Positions 5,881 to 24,505 of a stretch of 64,000 bases of DNA are shown in pieces. The notes under the pieces were generated by a model. It was not told where the DNA came from, did no database searches, and worked only from the letters and a program-made list of their open reading frames with translations. The DNA is from an uncultured virus (IMG/VR IMGVR_UViG_3300042691_027621) (lineage: Duplodnaviria > Heunggongvirae > Uroviricota > Caudoviricetes), in the IMG/VR virus record IMGVR_UViG_3300042691_027621, positions 1 through 64,000 of that record, one strand, 5' to 3'. The position numbers and the translations under genes were made by a program. The first letter of the stretch is position 1. Every line of letters begins with the position of its first letter.

Positions 5881-6633
5881 TTAGGAGGTAACGTTGTCTA
5901 CCAAAGCCAGATTGACAGTGGTTTGAGCAGTACCAGACTTGATTACTGTGCCTTCGTCTGTGAAGAAGTTGGCAACGTAACGAACATCGTTAGTAACTTC
6001 AGATTGAGTAAATCCTGAACCGCCAGTGAAGTCCAACAAGAATTTGTTGGTTAGCTTGCTGATTGGGGTAGCAGTAGAGTCACCTGTGGCTTCTGTGAAT
6101 GTAATGCACATTAGACCAGCTGCTGGTGTTGTGTCATTGTCCAGTACACAGACCCCAACACTGTAGGCAGAACCATTGCCGCCACCGTCGGCACCAGTTG
6201 CTGTGAAAATTCCGCCTACTGCAAGGTCAGCTTCTGCACCAATTGATTGCCAATTGGTGGTGCCTAACGCAGCAACTTGATATGCTTGTCCAACCACAAA
6301 ACTGCCGTCGTTAACGCCTGTGACATCGCCAACTAGATATTTGCGGGAACCTTTCTGACGAATGACGTAGCCTTGAGCTACACCTATACCTGAGCCCGAA
6401 GGATCAGCAATGTTAACAATTACATCAACACGAGGAAATGTAGCACTAGGGGTGTCTGTAGGTGTTGCTCCGCCGACCACGCCCAAGAATTGGGTAGAAT
6501 TCAGTGTGTCGGATGAATTGACCACAGGATTGGTCAGGCTTGCGAAATTTGGAAAACCAAGGTCAACACTGACGCTAGCGCCGCCGTTGCCTGAACCAGT
6601 GGAAATTTTTTGTATTTTTAGAGGACGTCCCAT
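5881..6633 (-). CDS. Conserved phage late protein, probably a virion structural protein
   Basis: MGRPLK N-terminus and IRQKGSRKYLV motif; Gly/Thr-rich; AAGGAG SD; preceded by a perfect TATAAATA. Confidence 0.6.
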   Translation of the reverse strand: MGRPLKIQKISTGSGNGGASVSVDLGFPNFASLTNPVVNSSDTLNSTQFLGVVGGATPTDTPSATFPRVDVIVNIADPSGSGIGVAQGYVIRQKGSRKYLVGDVTGVNDGSFVVGQAYQVAALGTTNWQSIGAEADLAVGGIFTATGADGGGNGSAYSVGVCVLDNDTTPAAGLMCITFTEATGDSTATPISKLTNKFLLDFTGGSGFTQSEVTNDVRYVANFFTDEGTVIKSGTAQTTVNLALVDNVTS

Positions 6634-6732
6634 TTGTTTTCTCCTTAAAGAAGTCCGATGTGGGTTCTAGCCACTACGCGGTGGGTTTAAAGTACCGCAT
6701 AAAACACCGTATTGTGTTGACAAGTATTTATA
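6634..6732 (-). promoter_or_regulatory. Late promoter TATAAATA (6725-6732) followed by a structured ~90-nt 5' leader
   Basis: Four short hairpins lie between the promoter and the ATG, the last one covering the SD. AACCCAC occurs twice. Confidence 0.6.
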
Positions 6733-20772: not shown

Positions 20773-21843
20773 ATGACAACAAAAATCATTGCTTTTTTAA
20801 CTGGAACAAATACTGGTTGCACATTTCTTGATTGGAGTGTGTTGTATTTGTCAGGGCAGACTGAGTTTTATTCATTCTTAGACCAAGATTACATACCATT
20901 GACACATAATCCAGTGACTCCGCTCAATGCGCACGGACACAAGAAAAATCATCTATGTGGGTTTGATCGAAACTCCGAAGAAGTCAAAACATTTTTGAAT
21001 CATTGTCAGGGGTTGTTGACCTTGTACCCTTGGACCTTGCGTTTTTCACAGGCTGCTGAACAAAACGGTATAGACATAGAATCTTCAATTCTTACGCAAG
21101 ATTTGATTGACAAGATTGAAGATTCCATGGCTCAGGATTTAAAAAAACTTTGGTTGTATTTGCATTCATTACAAGCCAAAGTGGTGTACGTAGAAGACGA
21201 TCCTAATCTGTCCTTGGCACATGTGGACCGTCGCAGTACTGAAGGTGGCATTAAAATGTTTAAGCCATCAACTCTAGAAGAAATTGACAAAGAATATCAA
21301 GAAATATTTTATTCAGACAGTATAAAAGCCTGGCAAGATCTTGGACTAAACAACATCTGGGATGACAGAGAACGGCGTGCATTAGACTTTCGACATCACC
21401 TTGACTACACACAAGCTAGGCAGCATATGATGCCATTTGATCTACCTCATCTAAGAGTCAACACCTCTGAGCTTTGGACGCAAGGAGAATGGGTAATAAA
21501 ACAGGTCATGGCTTTTTGTGAGCTTGAGATTGACCAATCTCGTTGGGAACACTGGACGGTTATGTATCAGCAATGGAAAGATAAACTGCAACAGAGAATA
21601 TTATTCTGTTATAGATTACCAACAATATTGAAATCCATAGTTAATAATTGGTATTACGACATTGGTGAGCTGACATTCATGCAAGAAGTTGTAGTGCAAC
21701 ATCTGTTGATTTACAAACATCAGTTGAATCTCAAAACATGGGAATTGTCTAAATTTCCACGCAATGCACAAGACCTACACAAACTTCTGGAACCAAATAT
21801 ACATTCAGTGCCAGACATCTACAATATAAGATCTACTGCGTAG
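20773..21843 (+). CDS. Hypothetical protein, possibly with a sulfotransferase-like P-loop fold
   Basis: 356-aa AT-rich ORF; the N-terminal beta strand followed by TGCTFLDWS resembles a 5'-PSB loop. Weak evidence. Confidence 0.4.
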   Translation: MTTKIIAFLTGTNTGCTFLDWSVLYLSGQTEFYSFLDQDYIPLTHNPVTPLNAHGHKKNHLCGFDRNSEEVKTFLNHCQGLLTLYPWTLRFSQAAEQNGIDIESSILTQDLIDKIEDSMAQDLKKLWLYLHSLQAKVVYVEDDPNLSLAHVDRRSTEGGIKMFKPSTLEEIDKEYQEIFYSDSIKAWQDLGLNNIWDDRERRALDFRHHLDYTQARQHMMPFDLPHLRVNTSELWTQGEWVIKQVMAFCELEIDQSRWEHWTVMYQQWKDKLQQRILFCYRLPTILKSIVNNWYYDIGELTFMQEVVVQHLLIYKHQLNLKTWELSKFPRNAQDLHKLLEPNIHSVPDIYNIRSTA

Positions 21844-21844
21844 A

Positions 21845-22275
21845 TCAGTTGTTTTCGCTATCGCTCAACAACTATTTTATTTAAAGAGCGAAGCGATTAA
21901 GTATTCATCCAGATCCAATGGTCACACTTTGCCCGCACAGGGCAAAGAAACTTCATCCGAGTCGGGCAAGTCACTTAGCGTTACAGCATTGCAGAGGCGG
22001 TTGTCCGGTACCTCGAGCTGCGTCTTTATCACAACGGCGGTTTGTATCACATACGCTAACATGCATACAAACGTGTACTATCACTAGTACGTCTTTTTCC
22101 CTTTTAAAATTCTGTTCAAACAATCAAACCGCAGGTGTTAAGCGATCGTGGTCCTGTCAAGGATACTGATTGAGTGCTCGCTGGCGCGGCGAGGCTTCGG
22201 ATCCCTGCGACACTGGGCCCAGGTTTCTACTGTTCGGCACACGAGGTTGACCTGTGCGAGTCCTAACTGCCTAGT
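21845..22275 (-). ncRNA. Candidate large structured non-coding RNA (~430 nt)
   Basis: The largest gap without a credible ORF in a gene-dense window. It has at least eight stems, a GUGA tetraloop on the minus strand and a possible 7-bp pseudoknot. Confidence 0.6.
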
Positions 22276-22704
22276 TTAGATTTTGTTGATTATGTGACTG
22301 CCATGTACACGAACTTGGATGTGTCCGTTATACCAGTCTTTTGATTCTAGCACTCTGCGTGAAAATTGTTCTCTTGCTTCGATATAGCTGCACTCTGATT
22401 TGCTTTTACAGTAATAAAGTATTTCTCTTGTAAAATTGTCTTTGCCTAAAAGTTCTACATCCTTGGACAGTTCTGGTGAGCTACCGTAGTAGTCTCTCCA
22501 GTCTGAATCCACTTTGGTGCGAATCTTCTTTTTCTTTTTAGTGCCGTTCTTGAGTTTGACTGTACGTTGTGTGGTACGAGAGAATTTTGCTAGTTTTTTG
22601 CCTATGTATTTGCGTTGATTGGTGACGTTGGTTATAAGATACACAAAGCCTACGCAGTCTTCGGGTAGCTCCTCTACAAGTTGATTGTTGTAAAACCATG
22701 TCAT
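22276..22704 (-). CDS. Minimal GIY-YIG (Seg-like) endonuclease
   Basis: GFVYLITN...RKYIGKK, DYYGSS, FTREIL, EAREQF and WYNG motifs; 142 aa with no separate DNA-binding domain. Confidence 0.85.
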   Translation of the reverse strand: MTWFYNNQLVEELPEDCVGFVYLITNVTNQRKYIGKKLAKFSRTTQRTVKLKNGTKKKKKIRTKVDSDWRDYYGSSPELSKDVELLGKDNFTREILYYCKSKSECSYIEAREQFSRRVLESKDWYNGHIQVRVHGSHIINKI

Positions 22705-22741
22705 CCATGTTAGTTATCTGCTGCCTGTCTAAATGTTATTT

Positions 22742-24505
22742 TTATGCCAAATCTACGTCAGTATTGTATTGTGTAAAGCCGTTTTCTTTGATCACTTTGA
22801 GAATGTTCTCAACACGACCAGCTAGTTCGTCTTTGTGACTCACAAGCCAGATACTCTTGTGGCGTTCGCGACTCATCTTCTTCAACAAGCCCAGACCGTT
22901 TTCTACACCCTGTGTGTCCAGACCATTGTCCATGAGCTCGTCGATGAACAGCAAGTTGATGGGATGATATAGGCTTTCCCAAACATCGCGGAATGCCCAG
23001 CTCATTGAAAGTATCAATCGGGTACGTTCGCCGCGACTCAAGTTATCAAAGTCCAGTTCTCGACCCAGTTCTTCAATGCTCACAGAAAGATCATTCTGGA
23101 ACTTTACTGTGTGTGGAAGACCAATACGATCCAAGTAGTGTGTGAGACGTTGATTGAGATAGCTCAAGTTTTGGTCAATGATTTTCTTGCGCACAAAGCT
23201 GTCTTTTGATGTTAACAGTTTTAGCAAGAAGTCTTGATGCTCTTGCAGCCTGGTAAGATCATTCAGTGTATCGTAGCTTACTGTCTGTAGAGCTTGGCCT
23301 TGCATGTCAGAAATTTGTTCGCCATACGGGTCTACCTCATTTTGACGAGTTTCTAGACTGTTTTTAAGTGTGCTCAAAGTATTGCGATGGTTTAGTGCAT
23401 TTTCCAAGGTATCGTAGAACACAATGGGTGCTGTGCCCAACGGACCCAGTTTGGACAATGTGTCTTGATGTTCTTGCCTTTGAGTATCATTGGCCAGGAG
23501 TTGCAGTGCAATTTCCTGTAGGCTTTTTTCGCGATCAGCACGAACTTTGTCTAAACTGTTGTCGTGTATCTCTGTACCACAAGCAAAACACCGATGTTGT
23601 TGGATCTCTTTAAGATCTTTGTCTAGTTGTTGTTTTTGTTTTTGTAGCTTGATGTCGTCAGTGGCAATTTGTCGTATCCAAAGATTCAAGTCATCAATGG
23701 ATTTTTTCTTGACGTGATAGGCGTCAAGATCACGATGGGCCTGGATTTCAACGTCAATGTTGATGTGTTCTAGGTCTGTGATAGCTTGTGCAAAATTTGC
23801 ACAATCCTCAGTTTGTTTTTTCAACCAAAGTGTCTGGCGCTTGCGCAGGCTTTCTATCTGCTCTTCAATGCGCTTGTTGGCTTCTTGTACTGCACGAATG
23901 CGAAATTCTTCTTGCGAGATAGCATCCTTGGTTTGTCGATTTAACTCTTTGACACGATCTGCACGTTCGCTGAGTTGCGTAATACCCAACAACTGTTCAA
24001 TGATGATTCTTTGTTCATTGGCTTTCAGACTCAGGAACGGTTCGGTATAAGTGTTCAGAGCCAGTACATGTTTAAACATGTCATGACTCATACCTAGTAT
24101 ATGCTCAATAGCATCCTGCGTTTCTCTGCTGTCACCTTGTGCTTCATCAGTAGCAGACTGTTCTTCGTTGTTGACGTAAAACTTCAGCACATTGGGTTTG
24201 CGTCCACGTTCAATCTTGTATTCTTTGCTGCCAACTGAAAAATCCAAACTCACCAACATGTGTTTAGCATTGGTCTTGTTCACAAGATTGTCCTTGCGAA
24301 TGTTTGACAGTGCATTGCCATACAAGGCATAGCTCAGTGCATTGATGATGGTGGTCTTACCAGTGCCGTTGCGACTGCCATCGCCACCTAGGTCAAGGTT
24401 CTCGCCTAGTACTAGAGTAAGGTCTCTGCGGTCAAAGTCAATGCCTTGTGTGGCATTGCCCACACTCATAAAGTTTTTTACAGTTAAATTTTTAAAACGA
24501 ATCAA
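22742..24505 (-). CDS. gp46: Recombination endonuclease ATPase subunit (gp46; SbcC/Rad50-like)
   Basis: KNFMSVGN, Walker A NGTGKTT, Zn-hook CFAC, signature LSRGE, Walker B LLFIDE and VSHK motifs. TTG start with a GGAG SD. Confidence 0.95.
   Translation of the reverse strand: MIRFKNLTVKNFMSVGNATQGIDFDRRDLTLVLGENLDLGGDGSRNGTGKTTIINALSYALYGNALSNIRKDNLVNKTNAKHMLVSLDFSVGSKEYKIERGRKPNVLKFYVNNEEQSATDEAQGDSRETQDAIEHILGMSHDMFKHVLALNTYTEPFLSLKANEQRIIIEQLLGITQLSERADRVKELNRQTKDAISQEEFRIRAVQEANKRIEEQIESLRKRQTLWLKKQTEDCANFAQAITDLEHINIDVEIQAHRDLDAYHVKKKSIDDLNLWIRQIATDDIKLQKQKQQLDKDLKEIQQHRCFACGTEIHDNSLDKVRADREKSLQEIALQLLANDTQRQEHQDTLSKLGPLGTAPIVFYDTLENALNHRNTLSTLKNSLETRQNEVDPYGEQISDMQGQALQTVSYDTLNDLTRLQEHQDFLLKLLTSKDSFVRKKIIDQNLSYLNQRLTHYLDRIGLPHTVKFQNDLSVSIEELGRELDFDNLSRGERTRLILSMSWAFRDVWESLYHPINLLFIDELMDNGLDTQGVENGLGLLKKMSRERHKSIWLVSHKDELAGRVENILKVIKENGFTQYNTDVDLA

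Follow-up and report, generated by a model that had tools for sequence, protein, structure and literature searches.

The question raised by this locus is whether a stretch of about 445 nucleotides (nt), which follows a GIY-YIG nuclease gene in an uncultured virus, specifies a structured RNA and whether such an RNA is the partner of the nuclease. The window, that is the whole stretch of DNA analyzed, comprised 64,000 nt and corresponded to positions 1 to 64,000 of IMGVR_UViG_3300042691_027621, a virus record of 75 kilobases (kb) with a completeness estimate of 22%. Unless stated otherwise, all positions are those of the window. Our analyses showed that positions 21828-22274 of the minus strand are a real, conserved, non-coding and multi-pseudoknotted RNA. 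It is probably an autonomous non-coding RNA of mobile elements, ~445 nt in length, that is common to uncultured freshwater T4-like phages and to integrative islands of Polynucleobacter and related bacteria. In the bacteria and in one complete phage genome, RNA and nuclease are independent of each other. The RNA and the gene in front of it were as follows:

22276-22704, minus strand: gene of a SegE-type GIY-YIG nuclease of 142 amino acid residues (aa), catalytic domain only (PF19835, E 1.4e-33; phrog_447, E 5.2e-38)
21828-22274, minus strand: structured RNA of ~445 nt, non-coding, with the DNA conserved over the whole span and a covarying structure of 108 pairs

The whole span, from 22275 to 21828, was conserved in most of the kept relatives with identities of 67–96% (blastn). 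Pairing was scored on an alignment of 33 sequences, referred to as A1, and mutual information (MI) was computed from a second alignment of 136 unique sequences whose median identity to the window was 65%. The resulting structure, whose coordinate r equals 22288 minus the window position, comprised 108 pairs in 22 helices; it was derived by hand and from the MI of the same sequences that were scored, which favours the structure. Two controls were used, in which the partners were slid by 1–3 columns or shuffled 500 times. On A1, 91.4% of the cells were paired vs. 36–41.5% in the slid controls, 79 of the 108 pairs showed double-sided changes vs. 26–36, and the covariation score was 0.46 vs. 0.06–0.09. 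None of the 500 shuffles matched the observed pairing values, and MI on the 136 unique sequences recovered the same helices. The distance from the slid controls and the counts of pair types per pair make it unlikely that the structure is due to chance. RNAalifold on A1 returned only 58 pairs and one implausible long-range helix and was superseded by the structure from hand and MI. The minus strand was supported by the Rfam match described below and by many G-U pairs.

An earlier, sequence-only reading of this DNA had pointed to a gap without a credible open reading frame (ORF) after the GIY-YIG stop codon, had listed stems in it and had named covariation among relatives as a check. The gap was confirmed, as no conserved ORF was found in the ~430 nt down to position 21843, and so was the covariation. 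The stems GTACTA-GTGA-TAGTAC, GTTTGTAT/ATACAAAC, CTTTGCCC/GGGCAAAG, CTCG/CGAG, TCCT..AGGA, GCACA/TGTGC, GCAGC/GCTGT and GAGG/CCTC were all real and covarying. The proposed pseudoknot between TTAGCGT (22053-22059) and ACGCTAA (21975-21981) was borne out at all seven pairs, each of which had changed on both sides. A CGG/CCG stem found no support; the loop that contains its bases forms another pseudoknot, through pairing of its ACAAC to a GTTGT upstream. The impression of an unusual density of stems was not upheld by folding energy, of which the z-score for the window sequence was -1.39. This non-significant score, together with an 83-aa ORF on the plus strand, is what a protein-coding gap or chance stems would have in their favour. 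The 83-aa ORF was open in only 11 of 123 homologs and had no Pfam match, and in 84 of the 123 its length differed by a number that is not a multiple of three. With covariation far above the controls as well, the coding and covariation tests already refute this explanation, and the probability left to it is practically nil.

From 5′ to 3′, the RNA is composed of a leader, a Polynucleobacter-1 domain, an A-rich linker, a 3′ domain and a terminator hairpin. Its parts were located as follows, where S, B and PK denote hairpins or helices of the 5′ domain, those of the 3′ domain and pseudoknots, respectively:

22118-22262, minus strand: 5′ domain, a member of RF01718 (79.1 bits, full model)
22267-22270 (r18-21), minus strand: 5′ strand of PK0, upstream of the start of the Rfam model and 6–9 nt after the GIY-YIG stop codon; MI pairs r18 with r105 and r21 with r102
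22183-22186 (r102-105), minus strand: 3′ strand of PK0, in the loop of hairpin S3 (helix 1)
r26-29 with r36-39, minus strand: small helix interlocking with S1 (from the structure)
rest of the Polynucleobacter-1 domain, minus strand: helices S2-S6 (from the structure)
22092-22117, minus strand: A-rich linker between the domains (from A1), ending in a conserved AAAGAC motif that is repeated at 22023-22028
22075-22090, minus strand: hairpin B1 with a GUGA tetraloop (helix 9; five of six pairs with changes on both sides)
22040-22072, minus strand: hairpin B2 with the stem GTTTGTAT/ATACAAAC (helices 10 and 11), whose loop at 22053-22059 forms PKb
21983-22035, minus strand: core pseudoknot (helices 13–15), in which GUUGU (22031-22035) pairs with ACAAC (22000-22004) in the loop of the nested B4/B5
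22017-22021 with 21983-21987, minus strand: B4, nested helix of the core pseudoknot
22011-22014 with 21994-21997, minus strand: B5, nested helix of the core pseudoknot
21975-21981, minus strand: 3′ strand of PKb, pairing with 22053-22059 (helix 12; seven of seven pairs compensatory, 98.7% of cells paired)
21951-21963, minus strand: module 1, with its heptamer at 21952-21958 (from MI and heptamer comparison)
21927-21947, minus strand: hairpin B6 between the modules, with the stem CTTTGCCC/GGGCAAAG (helix 17; 88.6% paired, mostly invariant)
21903-21915, minus strand: module 2, with its heptamer at 21904-21910 (from MI and heptamer comparison)
21886-21896, minus strand: small hairpin B7 with a GCUUCGC core (helix 19; three of four pairs with double-sided changes, only 75% paired)
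21848-21872, minus strand: hairpin B8 with an inner GC/GC stem, a GNNA loop and the GAGCGAUAGCGAA motif (GAGCG..AGCGAA; helices 20 and 21)
21830-21846, both strands: terminator-like hairpin (helix 22; six of six pairs compensatory), overlapping the stop of the plus-strand ORF

The leader and loop strands of PK0 co-varied across loci, for instance as ACACCAA/TTGGTGT and CCGTTA/TAACGG, and they did so in the bacterial copies as well. In the core pseudoknot, the MI between r255 and r286 was 0.89. The most conserved block of the RNA, GGUACCGG..ACCGCC, also lies in the core pseudoknot and is common to the bacterial copies and to the type 2 RNAs described below. The motif of B8 was the best conserved one between phage and bacterial copies; it is separated from B7 by an A/T-rich linker of variable length in A1. 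In a terminator scan, which returned 2 sites vs. 1.0 expected, the hairpin at 21830-21846 passed on both strands, and its tail on the minus strand was only moderately T-rich. The 3′ domain, with two pseudoknots, two modules, B8 and the terminator, is the more widely conserved part of the RNA and also occurs with other 5′ domains.

A search of Rfam identified a full-length match to RF01718, the Polynucleobacter-1 motif, at 22118-22262 on the minus strand (79.1 bits vs. a gathering score of 37; model positions 1–141 of 141). Its helices were kept in the relatives, where helices 3–8 of the structure were 79–100% paired and showed double-sided changes in 1–6 pairs each. The model did not cover the whole RNA, as the conserved, covarying structure extended beyond the match at either end, by ~290 nt downstream and by 8 nt upstream. 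At E ≤ 10 with permissive filters, Rfam 15 returned nothing else in 21600-22800 besides a chance row for the NBR2 long non-coding RNA, and the 3′ ~280 nt of the RNA matched no family at all at that threshold. Thus, two-thirds of the RNA belong to no Rfam 15 family, and the catalogued motif is its 5′ domain. The Rfam match is an outcome that the sequence-only reading had named as refuting, and it applies to the 5′ third. Likewise, the proposal of an undescribed class of large non-coding RNA held for a large structured RNA on the gene strand with a matchless 3′ ~280 nt and failed for the 5′ 145 nt, which score above the RF01718 threshold. The remark that hallmarks of transfer RNA (tRNA), transfer-messenger RNA (tmRNA), ribonuclease P (RNase P) and group I/II introns were lacking proved correct: ARAGORN found no tRNA or tmRNA gene in the window, and the Rfam models of group I/II introns, tmRNA and RNase P, as well as those of GOLLD and ROOL, had no match in 21600-22800 at E ≤ 10. 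No split ORF flanked the RNA in the list of window ORFs.

ROOL and GOLLD are large orphan RNAs of phages and prophages that are borne by mobile elements and have elaborate folds; to our knowledge, they have neither a fixed protein partner nor a known function. Similar to them, the RNA of this study is large, elaborately folded and found on phages and mobile elements. Different from them, it is smaller, is matched by neither of their models and possesses twin co-varying heptamers as well as a link to DUF6641 in bacteria. The Polynucleobacter-1 motif is closer, given that the 5′ domain in the window is a full-length member of it. In the summary table of the paper that described the motif, it is marked ‘y’ both as an RNA and as cis-regulatory, its range is given as Burkholderiales and fresh water/estuary, and the supplement of that paper holds 16 representatives with alignment rows of ~135–172 nt (Weinberg et al., 2010; PMC2864571). 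The habitats agreed, as the DNA runs that hold the window stretch included ones with freshwater and lake labels and the RNA is present in Polynucleobacter genomes. Compared with the 141-position model and those rows of the supplement, the motif was here the first third of an RNA of ~445–500 nt, to which a 5′ pseudoknot strand outside the model and the 3′ domain of ~280 nt are added; moreover, the 3′ domain of this family was also found without the RF01718 motif.

The linkage of the RNA with the nuclease in phages was assessed from both sides. A pattern scan for the RNA motif returned at least 119 loci, 81 of which allowed a call. Among the matches listed, the GIY-YIG gene ended 246–324 nt before the pattern, i.e., directly before the RNA, in 70 of the 81 callable loci. 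In five more it lay 1041–1307 nt before the pattern with one extra ORF of the same strand in between, and in one (L159) it ran into a truncated 5′ domain. The other five had no GIY-YIG gene within 1.5 kb. Only one of these five, L137, holds both RNA domains; the gene that immediately precedes its RNA, at 654-1220, encodes a RusA-like resolvase (phrog_244, E 1.3e-21) instead of the GIY-YIG protein. L115, L123, L147 and L155 were discarded, being fragmentary or chance hits. Neither Pfam nor PHROGs assigned a family to the ORFs that separate gene and RNA in some loci.

On the protein side, at least 576 viral contigs encoded a relative, and 80 of them were kept. Among these 80, a full RNA was adjacent in 38, and in 4 more the contig ended inside the RNA. 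The RNA followed an inserted ORF in 4 and the 3′ core did so in 5. Type 2 RNA was adjacent in 10, partial matches were found in 4 and the contig was too short to judge in 2. Finally, 13 of the 78 evaluable loci had no RNA, with at least 650 nt following the gene. Type 2 RNAs combine the 3′ core with another conserved 5′ domain, ~190 nt long (alignment A2), which lies ~140–190 nt after the GIY-YIG stop codon; they were found in L024, L027, L029, L037, L044, L050, L071, L073, L077 and L078. No Rfam hit was obtained in 20 loci for type 2, though the HMM (hidden Markov model) of the 3′ domain matches; at E ≤ 0.1, type 2 and the bacterial variants without RF01718 gave only a sub-threshold potC row. 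The exchange of the 5′ domain was not accompanied by notable change of the protein, for instance in L027, whose protein was 85% identical.

Ten of the loci without RNA were opened. In nine of them the gene, which was 73–77% identical, lay between nrdB-like and membrane-protein genes, and in the tenth, L065, it followed a gp46-like gene. These nine loci (L035, L038, L040, L048, L051, L054, L060, L069, and L079) represent a related lineage, of which the membrane protein has 334–388 aa and its start overlaps the GIY-YIG stop. One complete phage genome (G001; 161,882 bp, 100% complete, with terminal repeats) possessed a GIY-YIG gene that was 76% identical. The RNA was found nowhere in it by BLAST or by nhmmer with the HMMs of both domains at E ≤ 10, under which the window itself, as a positive control, scored 2e-64. 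In cultured phages, the protein family was found in 499 records, all below 60% identity and 339 of them Synechococcus phages; the best match was Methylophilales phage Melnitz with 51%. A blastn search with 21700-22800 against 50,697 phage records had no match, and the loci of Melnitz and ACP17 had no RNA HMM match. A literature search on GIY-YIG with structured or non-coding RNA in phages returned nothing relevant among the papers listed. Conserved linkage among homologs, which the sequence-only reading had demanded, was therefore present in part: it held in 76 of the 77 true phage RNA loci among the matches listed and was broken by G001 and by the bacterial copies.

In species-representative bacterial genomes, the motif scan returned 100 loci, most of them chance matches, and 20 of them had HMM matches. 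Three of the 20 (L227, L280, and L287) were phage-like contigs of metagenome-assembled genomes (MAGs) with a GIY-YIG gene, and the remaining ones included Polynucleobacter chromosomes and related MAGs. The GIY-YIG query matched these three only, and had no match in the bacterial loci linked to DUF6641. RF01718 was present in all 15 bacterial loci checked, with 46–104 bits. Aligned to the window, the bacterial copies had the same order of parts over ~500 nt from the Polynucleobacter-1 domain to the terminator: Polynucleobacter-1 domain, AAAGA motif and hairpin, ACCGCC core, twin modules around a hairpin, A-rich linker, B8 motif and terminator.

The surroundings of the bacterial copies differed from those of the phage copies. 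In all 15 loci, a gene encoding a DUF6641 protein (PF20346) was found 165–330 nt upstream in divergent orientation. In seven of the 15, a tyrosine recombinase of 188 aa followed 240–370 nt downstream; it is all catalytic domain (PF00589, E 3e-24, positions 2–168 of 172). With the DUF6641 gene on the opposite strand, the bacterial RNA must have its own promoter, and a TATAAAT hexamer was found ahead of the leader in six aligned bacterial copies. These surroundings are islands, with genes for full-length integrases, an AAA ATPase, restriction-modification, AbiEi-like and Fic proteins. PADLOC identified no known defence system among the bacterial neighbours, apart from weak AAA rows and an AbiEi-like protein in one island. 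A recurring cassette was also seen (L276, 1309-3323; L322, 2181-8997; L320, L321, and L323), in which DUF6641 and a small ‘INEI’ protein share one strand and the other strand carries the RNA and the 188-aa tyrosine recombinase; an AAA ATPase comes next, together with a 424-aa integrase. Neither the window nor any of the viral loci had a tblastn hit to DUF6641, to the tyrosine recombinase or to two other proteins of the islands. For DUF6641 itself, the Protein Atlas returned only DUF6641 clusters and a literature search found nothing.

Among 81 Polynucleobacter species genomes, RF01718 was above the cut-off in 9, with 1–2 copies each, which is a sporadic distribution, and DUF6641 was found in 39, with up to six copies. 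All 13 RNA matches in these genomes adjoined a DUF6641 gene. Of 20 further DUF6641 copies, seven adjoined the 3′ domain of the RNA without an RF01718 match. The 3′ domain rather than the catalogued motif is therefore the common denominator of the family. The RNA family is accessory and mobile. One genome (G009, contig C1) carries two RNA copies on the same strand, 18 kb apart (401229-401366 and 419563-419698), and a separate DUF6641 and tyrosine recombinase accompany each copy, an arrangement that resembles a tandem of two related islands.

Each of the two modules in the 3′ domain consists of GUGAC, a mini-hairpin of 2–3 bp and a segment of 7 nt. The two heptamers are 48 nt apart and both read GGAUGAA in the window. 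They were identical within the RNA in 128 of 129 phage RNAs, among which nine variants were found in all. The MI of equivalent heptamer positions was 0.89–0.98 bits, compared with at most 0.51 for the next best partner column. In the bacterial copies, which possess other heptamers, the two were identical in 11 of 13; the regular expression used caught only 64 of 159 sequences. The covariation is of the same-base type in parallel register, not of the Watson-Crick type, and fits two sites that are read by one dimeric or repeated partner. Complementary sites to the heptamer in the loci were scattered matches only, none of them consistent, and a 7-nt segment does not suffice for finding targets genome-wide. 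Thus the variable segment in a conserved scaffold that the sequence-only reading had suggested looking for exists, in duplicate, and the targets sought with it did not emerge in the loci. No column of the GIY-YIG protein co-varied with the heptamers above background.

The protein itself matched PF19835 (SegE_GIY-YIG) with residues 3–129 on all 123 profile positions and phrog_447, whose profile is 148 positions long. The GIY and YIG motifs and the later R, E, and N positions were invariant in 26 sequences. The AlphaFold model, with a mean predicted local distance difference test score (pLDDT) of 86.1, showed a GIY-YIG fold with a long β-hairpin (residues 40–66) that carries a lysine run at its tip. 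Its best Foldseek neighbours were structures of the I-TevI catalytic domain, which are weak matches (probabilities of 0.96 and 0.91, E 0.16), and the sequence matched no PDB chain below E 0.32. No appended DNA-binding domain was found in the 142 aa, of which the catalytic profile spans residues 3–129; longer fused forms were not searched for. The sequence-only reading had taken the lone catalytic domain with a very basic insert as a sign of an RNA partner. The former was confirmed, and the latter turned out to belong to the family profile and to be modelled as the β-hairpin, which is 6 residues shorter in a subclade (57–64% identity) that still has the RNA adjacent.

In T4, Seg proteins, like I-TevI, carry a GIY-YIG domain with an appended DNA-binding domain, and segB sits among tRNA genes. 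Similar to these, the window protein matched the SegE domain and homing-endonuclease PHROGs, its nearest fold was the catalytic domain of I-TevI, its gene adjoins a conserved RNA gene and its close homologs were found in at least two contexts, i.e., after gp46 with the RNA and between nrdB-like and membrane-protein genes. Different from these, it has 142 aa without a C-terminal DNA-binding domain. Moreover, the gene appears to be nearly fixed rather than sporadic: RNA-bearing phages nearly always possess it, and it is strongly conserved (55–91% identity). It is most likely, by this analogy, a gene of the homing-endonuclease type that became fixed beside a conserved RNA gene.

Some information on expression came from public runs. 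Fourteen runs, apparently of DNA (the kind was guessed), held at least one third of the sampled words of the stretch, and six RNA runs held 5–8%. In four metatranscriptomes, contigs covered pieces of the RNA and of the GIY-YIG gene, with 21600-21863 uncovered. One metatranscriptome contig of 195 nt with a depth of 48.8 lay on 21918-22075 with one difference, and contigs from two studies ended at 22275 and 22281, by the stop codon. Together, these contigs weakly hint at a stable RNA with its 5′ end at the end of the gene. Ahead of the phage RNA, no -10 hexamer was conserved; no position had one in more than 12 of 98. Because no promoter is conserved between them, the RNA would be co-transcribed with the GIY-YIG gene. 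The phage RNA would thereby be the tail of the GIY-YIG message, the transcript would end at the bidirectional terminator hairpin and its folded part would probably survive as a stable RNA.

How the RNA acts can be proposed only in part. The reading that we favour, a mobile, autonomous RNA, would be completed by a function in trans: as a compact particle, it may bind a partner, either protein or nucleic acid, that is dimeric or occurs twice and is read via the twin heptamers. This step we put forward tentatively, with belief and doubt nearly balanced and doubt slightly ahead. In the bacterial islands, the divergently encoded DUF6641 protein would be the candidate partner. That the phage copy serves the phage against host islands carrying such RNAs, or by imitating them, is unlikely.

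Several points weigh against this reading. The trans action and the partner are guesses, and the evidence for DUF6641 as a partner is adjacency; 12 of the 20 further DUF6641 copies had no RNA HMM match (one of them on a contig end of 530 nt), and in L336 only the HMM of the 5′ domain matched. The homology between the bacterial and phage 3′ domains is seen in a MAFFT alignment and in HMM hits with E-values from 1e-5 to 1e-21, some copies having none. Two inner pairs of PK0 in the window are mismatched in the register that was chosen, and helix 1 was only 68.9% paired overall. The minimum free energy of the window sequence was ordinary, as 11 of 100 shuffles folded as well. The contigs from RNA libraries may be contaminating DNA and also cover the GIY-YIG gene. 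Finally, the GIY-YIG gene lay upstream in 76 of the 77 loci counted above; common descent explains this co-occurrence, but a functional tie would explain it too.

Such a tie was the core of the sequence-only reading, in which the RNA scaffolds, guides or regulates the nuclease. As a nuclease-RNA system, the RNA would scaffold or guide the catalytic-only GIY-YIG protein and the heptamers would supply target recognition. The common strand, an RNA fold that begins 6–9 nt after the stop codon, the gene directly upstream in 70 of the 77 loci and within ~1.3 kb in 6 more, the lack of a separate DNA-binding domain and the concerted variable segment in a conserved scaffold are all what such a system would show. 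RNA-guided nucleases and recombinases of mobile elements are exemplified by the OMEGA systems (IscB/TnpB with omega-RNA) and by IS110 with its bridge RNA. Similar to those, the RNA lies beside a small DNA enzyme on mobile DNA and has a short variable segment, here present twice, in a conserved scaffold. Different from those, the co-occurrence is not obligate, the segment has 7 nt, few variants and no target found in the loci, and the enzymes are of other folds. The nuclease occurred without the RNA in the complete genome of G001 and in 13 of the 78 evaluable loci among the 80 kept, where the gene is in another context. The 499 cultured records hold the family, but the stretch of gene plus RNA had no DNA match among cultured phages, nor did Melnitz and ACP17 have an HMM hit. 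Conversely, the RNA occurred without the nuclease in bacteria and in L137. In addition, whole ORFs are tolerated between gene and RNA, the 5′ domain was exchanged next to a little-changed protein, no protein column tracks the heptamers and only nine heptamer variants exist among the 129 phage RNAs. A nuclease-RNA system is quite unlikely on these grounds, and the tie between the RNA and the nuclease is best seen as historical or positional, not mechanistic. A wider form of the idea is that the RNA is a portable, programmable recognition scaffold lending heptamer specificity, for a two-fold or repeated target, to adjacent DNA enzymes that consist of a catalytic domain only. In phages the enzyme would be the GIY-YIG nuclease with its 142 aa, and in Polynucleobacter islands the tyrosine recombinase of 188 aa; in one phage, a RusA-like resolvase stands in for the nuclease. 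If true, this would be a new kind of RNA-directed system for DNA cutting or recombination; we consider it very unlikely.

Two further explanations confine the RNA to its own locus. As a cis-acting 3′ untranslated element, it would stabilize or terminate the gp46/GIY-YIG message or regulate expression of the nuclease, and indeed it always closes the operon ahead of convergent genes, its end is a hairpin that resembles a terminator, and no promoter of its own is conserved in phages. The bacterial homologs, however, are free-standing behind a divergent gene with no upstream message to protect, the RNA is kept where its neighbour is another ORF instead of the GIY-YIG gene, and ~445 nt with four pseudoknotted interactions and twin, specificity-like heptamers exceed the needs of a 3′ end. 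We strongly doubt this explanation. A DNA-level element whose transcript acts at its own locus, e.g., as an R-loop primer at a replication origin, would draw on the A/T-rich stretch of variable length between B7 and B8 and on the AAA ATPase and integrases of the bacterial islands. It is extremely unlikely, given that cumulative GC skew has no turn near 22 kb, selection is on RNA pairing with G-U pairs included, the element is at a convergent junction behind a terminator and no replication gene is consistently adjacent in phages.

It is uncommon for an RNA to be large, intricately folded and pseudoknotted, and those found in the past proved to be ribozymes or to form the core of molecular machines. 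With the autonomous RNA proposed here, an orphan motif catalogued in 2010 becomes no more than the 5′ part of an RNA three times as long, which is found in hundreds of large freshwater phage contigs, several of them above 200 kb, and in mobile islands of an abundant freshwater bacterium. The twin heptamers and the constant DUF6641 neighbour are the best leads to its function, and as Polynucleobacter strains are cultivable, RNA ends, partners and phenotype are directly testable. The idea of an RNA that guides the adjacent minimal nuclease loses support and is kept as an improbable one.

The other features around the RNA in the window were the following:

22742-24505, minus strand: gp46/SbcC-like ATPase gene (phrog_77, E 9.8e-97; AAA_23 and SMC_N), in the same orientation and upstream of the GIY-YIG gene
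22750-22777, minus strand: sigma-70-like promoter match upstream of the GIY-YIG gene, from a consensus scan only and weak (3 sites vs. 2.1 expected)
22705-22730, minus strand: (G)ATAACTA-like motif with a small inverted repeat, 8–12 nt ahead of the GIY-YIG start codon in many loci
20773-21843, plus strand: convergent ORF of 356 aa with no family assigned in Pfam and PHROGs scans

The RNA is the last element ahead of the strand switch, and relatives have the same layout. The site at 22750-22777 may possibly be the start of a transcript of gene plus RNA. The (G)ATAACTA-like motif occupies the position expected for a ribosome-binding site and may be a translational mask or a phage promoter. In three relatives (L014, 2106-2969; L018, 1016-2961; L052, 1100-2991), one or two ORFs with CxxxCxxC-type cysteine motifs lie between gp46 and the GIY-YIG gene, and by eye these are candidates for radical-SAM-like proteins. 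Unlike these relatives, the window has a 489-aa AMP-binding enzyme upstream of gp46. Finally, a second Rfam match in the window, to the freshwater-2 RNA (RF02980), was found at 6631-6719 on the minus strand with 71.8 bits vs. a gathering score of 49.9.

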